Assembly (NCBI GenBank): GCA_028282585.1
Contig: JANQHR010000172.1
Coordinates: forward strand, 1 to 64,000
Reading direction: 5' to 3'
Source of the DNA: Bacteroidales bacterium
GTDB lineage: Bacteria; Bacteroidota; Bacteroidia; Bacteroidales; UBA12077
Length of the DNA stretch: 64,000 nucleotides
Below, piece by piece: positions 213 to 17,938 of the stretch. The stretch's first letter is position 1. Each line of letters starts with the position of its first letter. Made by a program: the position numbers and the translations under genes. A model generated the notes under the pieces. It ran no database searches, had not been told where the DNA came from, and saw nothing but the letters and a program-made list of their open reading frames with translations.

Positions 213-348
213 AATTTTTATAGTTTACTTACTTCTGAAATTGCCTGAATAACTCTAATGTATTTTCGTGGAAATTAACGTGCCTATTATTCCAAGATTT
301 ATTTCCGGGCAGCCGGATTAATGTTAATAAAAGTTACTAGTGGAACGA

Positions 349-1692
349 TTAAAACGTTAAAGTAAAAGTAGTTCCTTTTTCGATTTCGGATACAGCAGTA
401 ATTGATCCGCCATGAAGTCTCATGATTTGTTTTGAAAGACTTAGTCCAATTCCGGAACCTTTTGGTTTGGTAGTGAAAAATGGAATAAAAATCTTATCAA
501 GAACTTCCTTTAAAATGCCCTGTCCATTATCAATCACCTGAATAGTAACTCTACCACGTTTATTATAGTAGGCCTTTACATGAATCATTGGCATTTCTTT
601 ACCTTCAAGAGCATGTATAGCATTTTTAATTAGGTTTATCAGAACCTGTTCAATGAGTTTCGTGTCTGCATGAATTTCTATCGATTCAGGATCTACAGTT
701 AAAATATAATCTATGTTATTGGCTTTAACCTCTTCTTGAACAAGCATCTTAATGTCATCCAAAATATCTTTAACTTTTGCAATCTTGAAATTAGGATTTG
801 GAATCTTAGTAAGATTTCTATACGTATTTACAAAGTGTAATAATCCGTTACTTCGTTTATTAATTGTTTTAATTGCATTATGTGCTTCATTAATTGACTC
901 CTGGTCAGGAGGAGATTCATTCCTTTTTGCCTCTTTGAACATCAAATCTAATGTTGACGTAATTGACGAAATAGGGGTTATAGAGTTCATAATCTCGTGT
1001 GTAAGAACTCGGATTAATTTTTGCCAACTTTCTGTTTCTTGATCTTCTAAAACACTCTGAATATTTTTTATAGTTACAAGAATGATACTTTTATCATTAA
1101 TTTTAAATTCTGAGCCTGAGATTGCAAGCTGTAAAATGTCATCTTCCTCTTGTATTTTAACCAAGCTACTTTTTCCAGGTTCAAAGTTTATTAGCGTATT
1201 AACCAAATCGGAGCTAATAACTTCTAAATCATGGATATTTTTGACTGAGTTTATTTGAAAAAGCTTTTTAAAAGCATTGTTTACCATATCAACTTTTCCG
1301 TTACGTTGATACGTAATTATGCTTACATCAATATTCCGCACTAGGTTTTGAAAGTATTGATGCTGTTCTTCCTTTTCCGATCTTACTTTTTGAAAGTCCT
1401 GAATAACATCGTTAAACGCTTGATTTAATTCATCAAAGGAAGAGCCCATACCTTCAATTTTAAATGATCGAGTAAATTCTGAAAATCGAATTGATTCCAG
1501 AAAACTGGCCAAATCGCGATTTGTTTTATCCAGGTATTTAAAAATTAAATAAATTTGGAATATAATGATTAGCCCTATTAAAAATGGCGTAATAAAATAC
1601 TCTAGCGTAAGAGTATAGAAAAAAAGAAATATTGTTGCCGTTAACAACAATATTCTAAAAATAGCAACTAATCTGAAATTTCTAAAGACCAT
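349..1692 (-). CDS. Membrane sensor histidine kinase (NtrY/NtrB-like, PAS-like + HisKA + HATPase)
   Basis: Two N-terminal TM segments; HEIMNS H-box; NLIKNA N-box; DNGQG, FIPFFTTK and GSGIGL boxes; overlaps the regulator gene by 11 bp. Confidence 0.92.
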   Translation of the reverse strand: MVFRNFRLVAIFRILLLTATIFLFFYTLTLEYFITPFLIGLIIIFQIYLIFKYLDKTNRDLASFLESIRFSEFTRSFKIEGMGSSFDELNQAFNDVIQDFQKVRSEKEEQHQYFQNLVRNIDVSIITYQRNGKVDMVNNAFKKLFQINSVKNIHDLEVISSDLVNTLINFEPGKSSLVKIQEEDDILQLAISGSEFKINDKSIILVTIKNIQSVLEDQETESWQKLIRVLTHEIMNSITPISSITSTLDLMFKEAKRNESPPDQESINEAHNAIKTINKRSNGLLHFVNTYRNLTKIPNPNFKIAKVKDILDDIKMLVQEEVKANNIDYILTVDPESIEIHADTKLIEQVLINLIKNAIHALEGKEMPMIHVKAYYNKRGRVTIQVIDNGQGILKEVLDKIFIPFFTTKPKGSGIGLSLSKQIMRLHGGSITAVSEIEKGTTFTLTF

Positions 1693-5905: not shown

Positions 5906-6349
5906 ATGAAAAAAGTAATTACTGTATTAGCAATTGTAATATTTGCTGCTTCTACTGCATTTGGACAAGATGCGGAAAAGGAAGACATTAAAAATGTGAT
6001 TCAAACAGCTTATGTGGATGGTTTGCAAAACAAAGGTAATGTTGAAGACATTATAAATGGATTTCACCCCGGTTTTAACTTACTTGGAGTTAGGGAAGAT
6101 AAGTTAACCAAATACCCTATTTATAGCTGGATACAATCTTTTGAGGAACGAAAAGCAAAAGATCCTTCACCTGTAACCGATGAGAAAAAAATCACTTGCA
6201 ATTATTTATTGATTGATGTAACAGGCAATTCAGCAATGGCAAAAATCCAATTAGTTAGAAATAAAGAGCTTCTGTTTACCGATTACCTGCAGTTATATAA
6301 ATTTGAAGATGGTTGGAAGCTCGTTAGTAAAATATATTATCGCCATTAA
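5906..6349 (+). CDS. Secreted NTF2-fold protein (putative lumazine-binding family)
   Basis: Signal peptide; YVDG, FHP, IDVTGNSAMAKI and FTDYLQLYKFEDGWKLVSKIY patterns. Confidence 0.8.
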   Translation: MKKVITVLAIVIFAASTAFGQDAEKEDIKNVIQTAYVDGLQNKGNVEDIINGFHPGFNLLGVREDKLTKYPIYSWIQSFEERKAKDPSPVTDEKKITCNYLLIDVTGNSAMAKIQLVRNKELLFTDYLQLYKFEDGWKLVSKIYYRH

Positions 6350-11952: not shown

Positions 11953-12792
11953 TTAATCAAGGTGGTAATTAGCAAGTTCTTGAATTGGGTTTTTAACTAT
12001 TAAATCTATATTGGTATTATATCTTATAGCAACTTCATTAAGAAAATCTTTGAAATAATAAGCAATGGAACCGATAGCTCTGATTTTATAGTTAGTAAAA
12101 TTCTTATACTTTATAATATGTTTTTCAAACAAATCCGTAAAAGATCTATAAACCAAAGCTATTAAATGTTCTTCAGTTATGTTTGCATTTATAAATTCGC
12201 AAATCGATGCCAAAAACTTATTAGGATTTTCTTCCTTGTAGATTTTTTGCATGATTTGACTCTTAGTCAGTTGATACTTTGCCAAAAATACATTAGAAAT
12301 TTTTTCCGGAATGTTTCCATAAAGCAATTCTGTTACAAAAAGTTTTCCCAGATAATCACCACCACCTTCGTCGCCTAAAATGTATCCCAAGGATGGAATG
12401 TTTTTAGTTATATTTTTGCCATCATATAAACAGGTATTTGCACCTGTTCCAAGAATTAACGCAATGCCGGGATTGTTTTTAAATAACGCTCTTGCAGCAC
12501 CTAATAAATCATGATTAACTTCAATTATAGTCTGGTTAAAAAGTGGTTGTAATCCATTGAAAATTAAATTTTTCATTTCAGGCGTAGAACAGCCGGAGCC
12601 ATAGAAAAATATGTGTTTTATTATTTTAGTATCAAGAGTTTTTGGTAACTGACTTTTAAGATCATTATGTATTTTATTACTTGTTGTAAAGTATGGGTTA
12701 AATCCAACCGTAGTAAATGAAGATTTAATGTGATTATTATCAATTATAATCCAATCAGTATTTGTTGATCCACTATCAGCAATTAATATCAT
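11953..12792 (-). CDS. BadF/BadG-type ATPase, N-acetylglucosamine kinase-like
   Basis: IADSGST, ILGTGAN and GYILGDEGGG sugar-kinase motifs. Confidence 0.8.
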   Translation of the reverse strand: MILIADSGSTNTDWIIIDNNHIKSSFTTVGFNPYFTTSNKIHNDLKSQLPKTLDTKIIKHIFFYGSGCSTPEMKNLIFNGLQPLFNQTIIEVNHDLLGAARALFKNNPGIALILGTGANTCLYDGKNITKNIPSLGYILGDEGGGDYLGKLFVTELLYGNIPEKISNVFLAKYQLTKSQIMQKIYKEENPNKFLASICEFINANITEEHLIALVYRSFTDLFEKHIIKYKNFTNYKIRAIGSIAYYFKDFLNEVAIRYNTNIDLIVKNPIQELANYHLD

Positions 12793-14417
12793 TATTTATT
12801 TTCTTTTTTAACGTATTTTAAGTTAAGTAAATTCATTGGATTGCCTTCAAACCCTGAAATATTATTTTTTACAAAACGAACTACTTCATCATAATATAAA
12901 GGAACAATAACAGCATCATTTATAATAATCTCATTCATTTTATTATATAACAAAATTCTTAAACTATCATTTCTTTCCAGCATGGCTTGTTCATATAATT
13001 TGTCGTAATTTGTATTAAAGTATTGTGTATAATTCGGCCCTCCAGGGCTATGATTTTTACTGTAAAAAAGAGCCAGGTAATTTTCAGAGTCAGGATAATC
13101 TGCAATCCATGAACCTCTGAAAAATTCAAGCTTAGAATTAGCCACCATATCTCTAAAAGTGGCGCCGGTATTTACATTAATGTTAATTTCAATTCCAAAT
13201 TGTGAAAGTTGTTGCTGAATATATTCACATAAATCGAGATAATCGGCGGTTGTAGTTAAAGTAATCGGTACCAAACCTTCACCATTTGGATAGCCGGCTT
13301 CGGTTAACAAATCTCTTGTTTTATGAGGATTATATTCAAACCCCTGAAACTCATCGATGAATCCCGGTAATCCTTTGGGAATGAATCCCTGTAAGGCTGG
13401 TTCTCCAATGCTATTTCGGAGATATTTCATCATTTTAACACGGTCGAATCCGTAGTTGATTGCTTGTCTTATTTTCTTATTTAAAACTGGAGATAATTCA
13501 TTTTTAATTTTTGATGTGTCTAATAAAAACCCCAGGTATTCTGTGTTCAAATAAGGCTGATTAATCATTTTAAATTGATTTTTATACTTAGGATTCAAAT
13601 AACCATTTTTGGTTAATAATTCATCCTTATTCGCAGGATTGAGGCCAGAAATAAAGTCAAGGTTACCTTTAAGAAATTCAAGAAATTCTGATTGCTTATC
13701 ATTAATAAAAGTAATTGAAATTGCGTCTAGGTAGGGAAGAGGATTTCCTAAACTATCTTGTTCGAAATAATTGAGGTTTTTTACCAAAACTAGTTTTTCA
13801 CCTTCCTTCCACATTTTAAACTGAAATGGGCCAGTTCCAACCGGGTTATTCCTAAAGTCACTACCATAATATTCGACTATTTCTTGTGGAATAACCGAGC
13901 AATATTGCATGCTCAATAAACCCAAAAAGGCTGGGAAAGGATTTTTAAGCTTAATTTCTAGAGTACTATCATTTAATGCCTTAATGCCATTTTCTTTAAC
14001 ATTATTAAAGATCCATGCACCTGGCGATGCAGTTCTAGAATCAATGATGCGATTTAAACTGTATTCGAAATCGAATGCAGTTACTTTTCGCCCTTTTCCA
14101 TTAAGAAAAATTTGATGATCATGAAAATAAACATCATTTCGTAGAGTAAACTCATATTTTTTCCCAAAATCTAATATTTTCCAACTTTTAGCAATACATG
14201 GTTTAACGTTTAGGAAGTTATCCATTTGTACAAGTCCATTATACAACTGATTTGCTGGCCATATTAAAACCTGACTTTTGGCAAATGCAGGATCCAGTGT
14301 TGCAATACCTTTAGATTCATTATAACGAAAAACAGTTTTATTGGTTTGAACTTTATTTTCATTGCATGAAAAAAGAAGAAGCAAGATTGGAATGATCAAA
14401 AAAAAATAAATGCGCAT
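12792..14417 (-). CDS. ABC transporter substrate-binding lipoprotein (family 5, Opp/Dpp-like)
   Basis: Lipobox LFSC; TLDPAFA, PVGTGPF, KIRQAINY and WIADYPD motifs. Confidence 0.88.
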   Translation of the reverse strand: MRIYFFLIIPILLLLFSCNENKVQTNKTVFRYNESKGIATLDPAFAKSQVLIWPANQLYNGLVQMDNFLNVKPCIAKSWKILDFGKKYEFTLRNDVYFHDHQIFLNGKGRKVTAFDFEYSLNRIIDSRTASPGAWIFNNVKENGIKALNDSTLEIKLKNPFPAFLGLLSMQYCSVIPQEIVEYYGSDFRNNPVGTGPFQFKMWKEGEKLVLVKNLNYFEQDSLGNPLPYLDAISITFINDKQSEFLEFLKGNLDFISGLNPANKDELLTKNGYLNPKYKNQFKMINQPYLNTEYLGFLLDTSKIKNELSPVLNKKIRQAINYGFDRVKMMKYLRNSIGEPALQGFIPKGLPGFIDEFQGFEYNPHKTRDLLTEAGYPNGEGLVPITLTTTADYLDLCEYIQQQLSQFGIEININVNTGATFRDMVANSKLEFFRGSWIADYPDSENYLALFYSKNHSPGGPNYTQYFNTNYDKLYEQAMLERNDSLRILLYNKMNEIIINDAVIVPLYYDEVVRFVKNNISGFEGNPMNLLNLKYVKKENK

Positions 14418-14751: not shown

Positions 14752-17238
14752 CTAAAACTTTAAAGTTATACCGCCTAAAAAATTAATTCCCGCTTGCGGA
14801 TAATAATAAGCCCAACTACGTTCTTGCCCTTCAGTTAAATAGTTATCAGGGTTTCGCACACCTTCATACCAATTACCTCCATAAGCATTGCTTTCATATT
14901 CAACATCTAATAAATTGTTTACGCGAATAAAGAACGCTAGATTCTTAGCAAATTTAACTTTTGGTGTGTAAAATAATTTAAGATTATTGATAAAATAGGC
15001 ATCCAGTTTTCTGTTTTCGTCTGATGTATTATCAAAGTATTGTTCTCCGACGTATTTGCTTATTAAACTAAGTTCAATTTGTTTAATTGGCTTAAAAGTA
15101 AAAATATTTGATCCAACAAACTCTGGAGAATATGAAATATTTGTGGTTCCTAATTCTCTTGGAAGGTTCCCAAGAGAATTCCAAAATTCATTCGAATAAT
15201 TTGAATATTCAATAAAGTTTTTAATTTTATTTCTACTAAATGTTAAATTAAGTTGCCAATCAAAGAATTTGTTTAATTTAAACCTACTTATGATTTCGAC
15301 ACCTGCTCTGTAGCTCTCATCTACATTTGTTTGAATAGCATAACCAACATTACTTAACTGTCCAGTATTAACCAACTGGTCTTTATAATCCATGTAGTAG
15401 AAATTAAGCGATAATAAATAATTACTTGCTCTAAAATGTCCTCCTAATTCGTAATTATAAAGCGTTTCGTGTTTGGGCATGGCAGTTTCATCTCCGATTG
15501 CATTTTTTAAATCACTTCGTGTAGGTTCTCTATTAGCTACAGCAAAAGAGAAATAACTACTCAATTGTTCATTGATATCGTAGAACAAACCAAATTTCGG
15601 ATTAATAAAATTATAATCTTCAGAATTAGCTAAATCTTTAAAATCGTCATCCAGACCAGTTATTTCATAGGTTACATTTCTATACTGTATGTCACCATAT
15701 AAGTGTAGCTTTGAAAATAGGGTATAAGTTATTTTGCTAAAAACGTTAAAATCTGTTTTGGTCCCATTGTTGTTGTACCATTCGTAATCTTTTACGAAAT
15801 TATTGCCAAATTCAGACCAAAGAACAGTACCATAATGATCACCATCGTATTTATTCCAGGCACCACCTAATGTTAAATCAACTTTATACTTATTATAGTT
15901 TAATGAATAAGTAAACCCATAAAAATGATTATCCAACCACTTTCTTCTAATTATGTCCGAGTTCGTGATTGTACTATCCGGGAAAACCAATCTGCGAGTA
16001 CCAATGAACATTATACTGTCTCCTAGTTTAATATTCGGTAGACCATAATTAGCAAATGCATCACTTTCTTTATATTGTTCGTAATAACCTTTACCCCTTG
16101 TATAATGCAAAGCAAAATTTAAATTTAAATTTTTATTTAACTCATTTGAAAGTAATAGTTGATAATGTGTTTGAGTGTAGTTATCTGTTTGATCCTCGTA
16201 GTATTGAGTATTACCATCTAAATCAGTATATTCTCCTGCAGGATTATATGTTCTATCTTCATCTAAGATATAATCCGGTACTCCCCACCAACTTATTCCC
16301 GTTCTTTCTTTACCTCTAAAGATGTTTGCTTTAATTAAGGTTTTATTGGTATAGTAAGTTCCTGACACAAAAAATGATTCATGATCCGATGAAGAATAAT
16401 CAATAAATCCATCTGTTTGCACTTTCGATAACCTTGCATCGAAACTAAAATGATCGTTTATTAAACCAGACCCAATTAGAAAGTTATTTTTGAACGTATT
16501 GAAAGATCCAAAGCTACTATTTATTTCAGCATAAGCATCTTTAATTATACTTTTGGTTCTAAGATTTATTGTAGCTCCAAAAGCTCCAGCACCATTTGTT
16601 GATGTTCCAACTCCTCGCTGAATCTGAATATCCTGAACTGATGAAGCAATGTCGGGTAAATTTACCCAGAATACTCCTTGCGATTCAGCATCGTTATATG
16701 GAATACCATTAATAGTAACATTTATTCTGGTTGGATCAATCCCACGAATTCGCATTCCGGTGTAACCGATTCCAATTCCTGACTCAGAAGTTTCAACTAG
16801 TGATGGAACAGTACTTAGTAAAAATGGAACATCGCCGCTTGTTTTGTTTTTTTCTATAATTTCTTTATCCAGATTCGTAACCGCCATCGGCGCTTTATCT
16901 CCGGCTCGAGTAGCAGTTACAATAACTTCTTCTGATAGAATATTTGATAACTTCAGAATAAACTCAATGTTCTGAAGATCTTCTTTTTTAACCTGTTTTT
17001 CTATGGTATTATAACCTAAAAAAGATACTTGAAAAGTATAATCACTAGCTTTGATCCTAGAGAAACTAAACTCTCCGTTTACATTGGTTGCAGTGCCATT
17101 AAATGTTTCTTTGATTATTATGTTAGCACCTATTAATGGTTCTCCACTTTCGTTTTTTACAGTTCCTGTAATGTTTTCTTGTGCAAATAAAAAATGTGTT
17201 AATACACTCAAAAAAAATAATACTCCTATCCGTTTCAT
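14752..17238 (-). CDS. TonB-dependent outer-membrane receptor, probably a thiamine-family importer (likely start 17238, MKRIG)
   Basis: Signal peptide; CarboxypepD_reg-like N-domain; plug (RIRG..RINVTINGIP, QRGVGTS); C-terminal F; upstream TPP riboswitch. Confidence 0.88.
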   Translation of the reverse strand: MKRIGVLFFLSVLTHFLFAQENITGTVKNESGEPLIGANIIIKETFNGTATNVNGEFSFSRIKASDYTFQVSFLGYNTIEKQVKKEDLQNIEFILKLSNILSEEVIVTATRAGDKAPMAVTNLDKEIIEKNKTSGDVPFLLSTVPSLVETSESGIGIGYTGMRIRGIDPTRINVTINGIPYNDAESQGVFWVNLPDIASSVQDIQIQRGVGTSTNGAGAFGATINLRTKSIIKDAYAEINSSFGSFNTFKNNFLIGSGLINDHFSFDARLSKVQTDGFIDYSSSDHESFFVSGTYYTNKTLIKANIFRGKERTGISWWGVPDYILDEDRTYNPAGEYTDLDGNTQYYEDQTDNYTQTHYQLLLSNELNKNLNLNFALHYTRGKGYYEQYKESDAFANYGLPNIKLGDSIMFIGTRRLVFPDSTITNSDIIRRKWLDNHFYGFTYSLNYNKYKVDLTLGGAWNKYDGDHYGTVLWSEFGNNFVKDYEWYNNNGTKTDFNVFSKITYTLFSKLHLYGDIQYRNVTYEITGLDDDFKDLANSEDYNFINPKFGLFYDINEQLSSYFSFAVANREPTRSDLKNAIGDETAMPKHETLYNYELGGHFRASNYLLSLNFYYMDYKDQLVNTGQLSNVGYAIQTNVDESYRAGVEIISRFKLNKFFDWQLNLTFSRNKIKNFIEYSNYSNEFWNSLGNLPRELGTTNISYSPEFVGSNIFTFKPIKQIELSLISKYVGEQYFDNTSDENRKLDAYFINNLKLFYTPKVKFAKNLAFFIRVNNLLDVEYESNAYGGNWYEGVRNPDNYLTEGQERSWAYYYPQAGINFLGGITLKF

Positions 17239-17415
17239 TTTTAATAATTTATTGTTTAACATTTTGGATAGTTGACAGCTAATTTTGTGAATACAAACTA
17301 ACTTTGAGGCCTCATAAAATCATTGTTTTTATTAAATAATGATTTCAGTTTACTTGTATAAAGCAAACTTAACTATCAACTTTAATGAAAAACAATGGGA
17401 AATTCTTGATTTACT

Positions 17416-17492
17416 CTTTATCCCTACCCGGCATTACCCGGACCAGGTTCGAAGGGTATGATCTCAGCCTGTATATTCGGCACCCCATTGAC
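17416..17492 (-). ncRNA. TPP (THI-box) riboswitch, variant in the pyrophosphate-binding helix
   Basis: Minus strand GGGGUGCC-GAAUAUACA-GGCUGAGAUCAUACCCUUCGAACCUGGUCCGGGUAAUGCCGGGUAGGGA. Confidence 0.92.
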
Positions 17493-17496
17493 GGGA

Positions 17497-17504
17497 CAAA
17501 TGTA
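17497..17504 (-). promoter_or_regulatory. Bacteroidota housekeeping -7 element for the riboswitch/TonB transcript
   Basis: TACATTTG (TAnnTTTG) immediately 5' of the aptamer. Confidence 0.65.
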
Positions 17505-17525
17505 TGATAAAAATATTTTAAAACA

Positions 17526-17552
17526 AAAAAAGCCGGAGTTAATCCGACTTTT
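17526..17552 (-). terminator. trxA terminator
   Basis: AAAAGUCGGA-UUAAC-UCCGGCUUUUUUU on the minus strand. Confidence 0.7.
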
Positions 17553-17572
17553 AATCATCTTGAGATTTAAAA

Positions 17573-17938
17573 TTAGTTTTCCAAGTCTACTTTTAACACG
17601 TCTTTAATTGCTTTTTGGAATGAATCTTTTGGTAAAGCACCTTGAGCCATTTGTGGTTGCCCATCCATAGGAACAAATAAAAGTGACGGTATACTTCTGA
17701 TTCCAAACATTCCAGCTAATTCTTGTTGGTCTTCGGTATCAACTTTGTATATATCAACTTTACCCTCGTATTCTTTTGATAATTCTTCTAAAATTGGGGC
17801 CACTGTTTTACATGGTCCACACCAATCAGCGTAAAAATCTATTAAACAAGGTTTGTCCCCTTCGAATTTCCAGTCTTTATTCTCCTCCCAGTTAAAAACC
17901 TTTTCCTTGAATGTCTCTTTTGTTAAATGTTCTAGCAT
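17573..17938 (-). CDS. trxA: Thioredoxin
   Basis: DFYADWCGPC active site; IRSIPSL cis-Pro loop. Confidence 0.93.
   Translation of the reverse strand: MLEHLTKETFKEKVFNWEENKDWKFEGDKPCLIDFYADWCGPCKTVAPILEELSKEYEGKVDIYKVDTEDQQELAGMFGIRSIPSLLFVPMDGQPQMAQGALPKDSFQKAIKDVLKVDLEN

Follow-up and report, generated by a model that had tools for sequence, protein, structure and literature searches.

Judged by its sequence, the aptamer on the minus strand of the window (the whole 64,000-nucleotide stretch of Bacteroidales DNA that was analysed) is a member of a conserved sub-class of TPP riboswitch in which the pocket that reads the phosphates has been rebuilt. The class is visible in the sequence itself, in its conservation, in the genes that it precedes and in the gene content of its hosts. 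It is proposed here, at a probability of about 0.5, that the RNA still binds the thiamin moiety and no longer reads the beta-phosphate, which would amount to a loss of pyrophosphate discrimination. Such an altered-ligand interpretation is plausible and agrees with a published remark given without detail; the idea of a pocket variant is thus not new, being already in a 2017 review (PMC5473149), whose accessible text mentions it but does not describe it in detail.

Aptamer sequence and the pyrophosphate arm

A 501-base cmscan search (17200-17700) gave a match to RF00059 (TPP) at 17404-17497 on the minus strand, covering model positions 1-105 with 53.7 bits and E = 8.1e-10 (E = 1.9e-9 in an RF00059 search of the host's own genome). 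This Rfam family is that of the TPP riboswitch or THI element, exemplified by E. coli thiM (PDB 2GDI). The gathering score is 54.3 bits, which leaves the window aptamer 0.6 bit short although the match is strong in statistical terms; at Rfam gathering thresholds, scanning the whole window gave no hit, and an all-Rfam scan of 17200-17700 with E up to 10 placed no family except RF00059 on the aptamer. Across the riboswitch region the minus strand reads ...GAACCUGGUCCGGGUAAUGCCGGGUAGGGA..., and the aptamer and the gene behind it comprise the following features:

17404-17497, minus strand: TPP-type aptamer (Rfam RF00059 match)
17454-17486, minus strand: pyrimidine-sensor arm (cmscan alignment)
17485-17483 with 17456-17454, minus strand: P2, GGG with CCC (cmscan alignment)
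17481-17479 with 17469-17467, minus strand: P3 (short), GCC with GGC (cmscan alignment)
17467-17462, minus strand: J3/2, CUGAGA (cmscan alignment)
17423-17447, minus strand: remodelled pyrophosphate arm (sequence and cmscan alignment)
17447-17445 with 17425-17423, minus strand: P4, CCU with AGG (sequence and cmscan)
17444, 17443, 17442 and 17426, minus strand: equivalents of G60 (G17444), A61 (G17443), U62 (U17442) and U79 (U17426) (sequence and cmscan)
17441-17438 with 17431-17428, minus strand: P5 (sequence and cmscan)
17437-17432, minus strand: L5, GUAAUG, a UAAU-type loop as in RF00059
17427, minus strand: the single J5/4 base, G17427 (sequence and cmscan)
14752-17238, minus strand: TonB-dependent receptor (CarboxypepD_reg, Plug, beta-barrel; Pfam, ORF list and conserved start)

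As in RF00059, there are two arms, P2-P3 with the J3/2 CUGAGA pocket and P4-P5 with a UAAU-type L5, and the aptamer sits in a 5' leader with a thiamin-related control that its context suggests. The pyrimidine-sensor arm of the window aligns to the model with high posterior probability, and its P2, P3 and J3/2 columns show no variation in 38 aligned class members. The first-pass annotation, which was made from the window alone, had called everything outside the pocket canonical and intact. That description stands for CUGAGA, P2 and the UAAU loop, and across the class the rest of the aptamer is nearly invariant, as was supposed; it does not stand for P3, which has three standard pairs only (GCC/GGC), for the optional P3a, which is missing, or for the model P1, which is unpaired in the window (four of five model pairs non-standard by cmscan).

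Read directly, minus strand 17447-17421 of the window is CCU-G-G-U-CCGG-GUAAUG-CCGG-G-UAGGGA, exactly the arm that had been described. In the cmscan alignment the consensus CCUgAUccGG...CCggCGuAGGGA lies opposite CCUGGUCCGG...CCGG-GUAGGGA in the window, and both of the reported pocket changes are present when the Rfam consensus, not the E. coli thiM sequence, is taken as the reference: within the conserved pyrophosphate/Mg2+ pocket (G60, A61, C77, G78), G17443 stands in for A61, and the alignment leaves C77 empty, between G17428 and G17427. The earlier picture of the pocket needs amending in other respects, since the G60 equivalent varies, G17427 is a minority state where A is the rule, and P4 and P5 can, on their sequence, stack as one helix with a one-base bulge.

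The class arm follows the pattern CCU-N-G-U-P5-GUAAUK-P5'-A/G-UAGG, which within the host's family becomes ACCU-N-G-U-[4 bp]-(G/A)UAAU(G/U)-[4 bp]-A-UAGG. Unlike RF00059, in which the J4/5-J5/4 loop is G60 A61 U62 / C77 G78 U79, the class has N-G-U / A(G)-U. Across the 39 genome copies there is no constraint on the G60 equivalent (G26/C11/U1/A1), and J5/4, a single base, is A in 37 and G in two, the window and L097; the 29 metagenome copies have G20/C5/A4 and A27/G2 at the same two places. G61, U62 and U79 show zero variation in class copies, and cmscan puts the gap at C77 and the class A at the position of G78. According to the accessible parts of the literature, G60, C77 and G78, all strongly conserved, make contact with the metal, G78 also contacting the pyrophosphate (PMC3764141), the beta-phosphate is hydrogen-bonded by C77 and G78 (preprint 10.1101/2025.01.21.634073), and U62 and U79 are flipped out in the canonical fold (PMC2018614). 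Set against these published contact residues, the sequence counts leave G60 unconstrained, C77 absent and G78 replaced. The telling changes are the loss of C77, the G78 to A replacement in the class and the release of G60 from constraint. A61G, previously put forward as a telltale change, loses that role: engineered thiM A61G keeps or improves TPP switching (preprint 10.1101/2025.01.21.634073, as far as its accessible text goes), and a high-GC aptamer on a metagenome contig (L122, locus about 5911-5954, plus strand) has A61G but keeps the J5/4 CG and lies directly before thiC.

A one-helix model of the arm (CCU/AGG, bulged N, G61.U79, U62-A78 and P5; nine pairs) has 98.4% of 315 cells paired, and a control in which the 3' partner columns were slid by one to three positions gave only 25.6-54.6% pairing. 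Two of the four P5 pairs have both-side changes; G61.U79 is constant in all 35 distinct rows and U62-A78 changes in one partner alone (UA 33, UG 2), and because the new pairs are either invariant or altered on a single side, covariation neither proves nor refutes the collapsed helix. The 29-nt arm folds thermodynamically in a shifted register in which U62.G78 is paired but CCU pairs with GGG. In the proposed mechanism, the arm that reads the aminopyrimidine would be intact, and the Mg2+-pyrophosphate arm (G60, A61, C77, G78) would have collapsed into a nearly continuous P4-P5 helix containing a G61.U79 wobble, a U62-A78 pair (U.G in the window) and one unconstrained bulged base.

The same arm might also belong to a structural isoform that is still TPP-specific and holds the pyrophosphate-Mg2+ in another manner, for example in the G61.U79 major groove by the bulge, a possibility that we regard as real, if rather improbable. 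G61, U62 and U79 are invariant and J5/4 is always a purine, which indicates an arm under tight constraint and not a relaxed one, and the engineered A61G likewise speaks for retained TPP switching; such an isoform would nevertheless have to do without the contacts to metal and beta-phosphate, with G60 free, C77 absent and G78 replaced. A G.U wobble can hold hydrated Mg2+. For the preferred reading, loss of pyrophosphate discrimination, the G.U wobble is a caveat in that the pyrophosphate-Mg2+ contact could survive in another form, and A61G alone is compatible with TPP.

Distribution and conservation of the class

RF00059 was searched in the 56 genomes of the host's family, giving 73 hits with bimodal scores, all of which were read. 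This search for copies sharing both changes, a check that had been recommended, found the same arm in 33 of the 73: the window, 31 of the 36 other genomes of the genus and one of two sister-genus genomes. All 33 lie below the Rfam cut-off, at 42.9-53.7 bits, and each is followed by the gene of a TonB-dependent receptor with about 738-843 aa (lengths from mechanical ORFs, some cut by contig ends). When 185,579 species genomes were scanned exhaustively for the pattern, 37 stretches came up, namely 31 host-family loci already counted, five of a second lineage and one other (L084). The second lineage consists of five uncultured Bacteroidales/Marinilabiliales MAGs with a different leader, in which the aptamer precedes a CarboxypepD_reg-Plug-barrel receptor (812 aa in L105). 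In L084, from a 1.0-Mb genome, the class aptamer lies before an operon of Thiamine_BP, ABC permease and NMT1/ThiY genes, and a divergent TPK gene adjoins.

In metagenome contigs, a less strict scan picked out 42 stretches, which overlap in part with the genome set, as some contigs are the same records. These comprise 29 class members, nine chance matches and four TPP aptamers of other forms, with CG or UG retained at J5/4, among them the A61G-only L122; the 29 members divide into 20 of the family type, eight of the second-lineage type and one of a further lineage (L121), which has an ordinary adjacent P1 and precedes an 810-aa receptor. A TonB-dependent receptor is found downstream of every class copy but one (L084). 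The Rfam cut-off is missed by 38 of the 40 scored class copies (33/33 in the family, 4/5 in the second lineage, and L121), L084 scoring above it, so that standard annotation leaves these B1-uptake genes looking unregulated.

The suggestion that the pocket had been remodelled under selection finds support in this distribution, as 39 genome copies from at least three lineages and the metagenome copies share the arm, which points neither to decay nor to sequencing error. A decayed, non-binding aptamer, conserved only as a structured leader or promoter-proximal element, is highly improbable. It would fit the 38 of 40 copies under the gathering cut-off and the unpaired model P1, but J3/2 CUGAGA, P2 and the UAAU loop are invariant in 38 copies while the receptors behind class members are only 35-89% identical, P5 covaries, and a distal P1 is backed by both-side changes between two lineages. 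A comparison with raw reads had also been called for: one public DNA run carries the whole stretch with 0 differences, but the assembly may have been built from this very run, which therefore offers no independent check. Contigs of three other public runs are those of relatives and have A where the window has G17427.

In two sister-genus genomes, orthologous leaders before the orthologous receptor carry a canonical pocket (L052, CCUGAU...UGUAGG) and an intermediate pocket without A61 (L051), which suggests that the pocket was remodelled inside a working switch. These sister-genus aptamers, together with the canonical and remodelled aptamers that stand before paralogous receptors in one genome (below), make up a natural test set, and since the canonical, intermediate and remodelled forms differ at few positions, a change of specificity would be measurable. 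An effect that has so far been in print only as 'in preparation' could thereby be tested directly on this class.

Some other TPP-type aptamers were encountered in these searches. One has a different collapsed pocket (L042; G031:C220, locus 301-390, plus strand; 56.6 bits), reading CCUGA-GCAG-GUAAUG-CUGC-UAAGGA, in which U62 and one J5/4 base are missing and the CG is replaced; it is a single instance and lies 330 nt before a thiC-led operon. Two TPP-like aptamers with C77 changed to U (L053, G053:C77, 65.8 bits; L038, G052:C220, 31.7 bits) are followed after about 230 nt by a glycogen debranching enzyme gene (GDE_N/GDE_C), behind which L053 has a glycosyltransferase gene; this is an unusual place for a thiamin switch. 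In the sister genus g4, L040 and some 20 further loci have canonical TPP riboswitches on an operon led by a SAM-methyltransferase-like gene (240 aa) and continuing with thiM, thiE, a second thiL copy, thiD and tenA.

Thiamin genes of the hosts and candidate ligands

The receptor behind the window aptamer has 828 aa from the conserved MKRIG start (ATG 17238), and the mechanical ORF from 17262 has 836 aa; in relatives the upstream ATG (17262) is followed by a stop, and the start conserved among orthologues is ATG 17238. Pfam assigns no thiamin-specific signature to the receptor itself. The first-pass annotation had presented it as a lone importer with no adjacent pnuT or thiamin pyrophosphokinase gene, and it is so: neither gene adjoins the receptor, and the next genes, SBP_bac_5, a 279-aa protein and then a LytTR two-component pair, are unrelated to thiamin. 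The first two of these (window 11953-14417, minus strand; SBP_bac_5 of 541 aa and a MurNAc/GlcNAc-kinase-family protein of 279 aa) lie behind the receptor in most family loci. The 279-aa protein, missed by Pfam, resembles MurNAc/GlcNAc kinase structures (PDB 8oqw, 8ow9, 8oqk; E 1e-62 to 1e-59), and together with SBP_bac_5 it looks like a separately transcribed peptidoglycan-recycling pair. A thiamin-related role for the pair, for example as the missing thiamin kinase, was rejected on these kinase structure matches; the pair also lies 334 nt from the receptor and is absent behind the second-lineage receptor.

TPK (PF04263) was found in 0/56 family genomes and 0/5 second-lineage genomes, the control genomes being positive. 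ThiL is present in all 56 family genomes (51 over the cut-off) and in the five of the second lineage, and ThiE in 5/36 other genomes of the genus, in 16/16 of the prototrophic sister genus and in 0/5 of the second lineage. In the host's own genome (98% complete), tblastn with relatives' proteins detected no thiC, thiD, thiE, thiM, tenA or Thi4, and there was no match to the ThiK model. Its PnuC-family transporter adjoins an AAA_28 (NadR-kinase-like) gene and has no riboswitch, and is for these two reasons probably not a PnuT. The hosts thus pose a metabolic puzzle, having ThiL and no TPK, mostly lacking ThiE and, as regards the own genome only, giving no ThiK match; which B1 vitamer the uncultured Bacteroidales of sediment and reef import bears on vitamin cross-feeding.

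With loss of pyrophosphate discrimination, the RNA would no longer answer to TPP alone but to the combined thiamin, TMP and TPP, or to a form that lacks the pyrophosphate. With the pool full, it would lower the expression of a TonB-dependent receptor that takes a thiamin vitamer across the outer membrane of an organism unable to produce thiamin. We infer this ligand range, as well as the off-switch direction and the level of control discussed below, from sequence and context. The association with TPK absence is not universal, however, as L084 has an adjoining TPK gene, and an importer in an auxotroph would sensibly be regulated by TPP too. An aptamer that is still TPP-specific gains from TPP being the end product in these ThiL-containing cells, and from the TPP riboswitch before the TonB-dependent OMthi that is established in Bacteroides (bioRxiv 10.1101/867226, accessible text). 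On the other side, the own genome has a second aptamer with a canonical pocket (C39:8332-8431, 56.4 bits, CCUGAUCCGG..CCGGCGUAGGGA) in front of a receptor paralogue with 45% identity, and canonical pockets also stand before biosynthesis operons in family members; a canonical pocket kept at these other receptor and biosynthesis operons is hard to explain with one shared ligand. The published remark that core-mutated variants lose discrimination (PMC5473149, in the part of the text available) likewise counts against TPP specificity.

Another interpretation, which appears unlikely, is that the class is a dedicated TMP or thiamin sensor in ThiL-only Bacteroidales, where TMP would be the trafficked vitamer, imported via the receptor family. 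If this were true, the genome would run two receptors, one under a canonical TPP sensor and one under a remodelled TMP or thiamin sensor, as a natural two-channel read-out of the B1 pool.

It is quite doubtful that the ligand is some other pyrimidine, such as HMP, a formylamino- or aminomethyl-pyrimidine salvage substrate or an antivitamin, with the receptor importing that compound. The intact arm is the aminopyrimidine reader, and the sole non-receptor context (L084) has an NMT1/ThiY-type binding protein, an ABC permease and Thiamine_BP. ThiXYZ-type systems serve pyrimidine salvage. Against this, ThiD, ThiE and TenA are missing from the own genome and ThiE occurs in just the few genomes of the genus counted above and in none of the second lineage, so that a bare pyrimidine would be useless to receptor-linked hosts without ThiD, ThiE and TenA; moreover, L5 and the whole second arm are conserved, which suggests a ligand that still bridges both arms.

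Among described systems, the closest to the preferred reading, a switch that has lost pyrophosphate discrimination, are the unpublished TPP variants mentioned in the 2017 review, whose pyrophosphate-binding core is mutated and whose affinity for thiamin is close to that for TMP and TPP (Roth, McCown, Zhang, Lee and Breaker, 'in prep.' in McCown et al. 2017, RNA 23:995; PMC5473149, accessible text). The likeness consists in a mutated P4-P5 pyrophosphate core within an otherwise typical TPP aptamer and in an ordinary TPP aptamer in the same genome; it is a match by description, the available review text giving no sequences, taxa or gene contexts. The window class is probably one of these thiamin-tolerant variants, identity being assumed from the description. 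A search of the literature available to the analysis returned no paper later than the 2017 remark that describes this variant.

The Bacteroides OMthi case (BtTPP2) has the same arrangement, that of a Bacteroidota outer-membrane receptor of the TonB-dependent type with a riboswitch in its leader, and for the transport genes of B. thetaiotaomicron the preprint by Costliow, Degnan and Vanderpool reports translational control. But those organisms have pnuT and a thiamin pyrophosphokinase (tnr3), whereas the host family lacks TPK and the pocket is remodelled; the word 'variant' has 0 occurrences in the accessible text of the preprint (bioRxiv 10.1101/867226). The thiS motif or HMP-PP riboswitch, a compact ON switch of one hairpin that is found with thiS and thiE (Atilho et al. 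2019, eLife, PMC6478431, accessible part), is likewise a thiamin-pathway switch, and its terminator-embedded aptamer loosely resembles the P1 and U-run of the window. It differs in being a single hairpin with HMP-PP, a ligand other than TPP, while the window RNA retains both arms of the TPP fold and has a receptor gene behind it, not thiS or thiE.

Promoter, P1 and the leader

The region around the aptamer contains the following putative control elements:

17497-17526, minus strand: putative Bacteroidota-type promoter, TTTG at about 17526-17523 and TAcaTTTG at 17504-17497
17486-17490, minus strand: P1 5' strand, CAAUG, complementary to CAUUG 17397-17393
17400-17420, minus strand: conserved A-rich linker UAAAGAGUAAAUCAAGAAUUU between P4 and the P1 3' strand (family alignment)
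17388-17399, minus strand: P1 3' strand CAUUG 17397-17393, with CC before and UUUUU 17392-17388 after
17375-17380, minus strand: GUUGAU, 5' strand of a long-range helix with (A/G)UCAAC 17276-17271
17226-17276, minus strand: start-codon enclosure, GUCAAC 17276-17271 and CUAUCC 17271-17266 with GGAUAG 17231-17226

The family alignment has a conserved TAnnTTTG block directly upstream of the aptamer, which we take to be the Bacteroidota-type promoter consensus; from its position at 17504-17497 the RNA should start just before CAAUGGGG, a few bases ahead of the aptamer. A sigma-70 scan gave nothing above shuffles. About 25 nt ahead of the promoter, at 17528-17552 on the minus strand, there is a clean intrinsic terminator (10-pair stem and U-run) for the thioredoxin gene (17573-17938).

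Apart from its score just under the cut-off, the aptamer differs from RF00059 in the placement of the P1 3' strand, 21 nt beyond the aptamer: no P1 helix follows GGGA directly in the window, and CAAUG/CAUUG substitutes for it after a 21-nt linker. The sequence CCCAUUGUUUU is present in 32 of the 33 family copies and CCCAUUAUUUU in the remaining one, and the second lineage has AGAAG/CUUCU at both P1 places, with three of five pairs changed on both sides (by eye). The P1 3' strand and U-run form a possible P1-embedded terminator, and the CC ahead of the strand could invade P2 instead.

Further downstream, the GUUGAU/(A/G)UCAAC helix is changed on both sides in L013 and L016, to GCUGA/UCAGC (by eye); pairings of GUUGAU with the 5' AUCAAU or with AAUCAA of the linker were rejected, being uncompensated in these two loci. 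In an RNAalifold analysis of 32 family leaders, the predicted CUAUCC/GGAUAG helix spans the A-rich leader and the conserved ATG 17238-17236, and L026 and L031 have compensated changes on both of its sides (by eye); the structure overall was mixed.

Under the proposed reading of pooled vitamers, ligand binding would stabilise P1, whose 3' strand lies 21 nt past the aptamer with a U-run after it. The off switch could then act by termination at the U-run, by closure of the start-codon domain through the conserved long-range helices, or by both. The 108-nt leader folds thermodynamically into a CAAUGGGG/CCCAUUG helix and does not recover the aptamer (z = -0.8, no better than shuffles), and a simple terminator scan made no call in the platform, its sole find being the terminator of the upstream thioredoxin gene at 17552-17528. 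The folding energies of arm and leader and the mixed RNAalifold structure decide nothing, and together with the terminator scan they neither back nor rule out an off switch at P1 and the U-run or at the start codon.

A marine-sediment RNA library contains two 151-nt contigs of a relative that cover 17334-17491, across the U-run; as these contigs show neither transcript ends nor the RNA origin of the signal, they allow no conclusion on expression or termination. In three species (L004, L010 and L029), a short GC-rich palindromic insert (CCUGUCUG...GGCAGAC/GGCAGGC type) is located just upstream of the start codon, within the otherwise AT-rich conserved leader, and may be a small repeat element.
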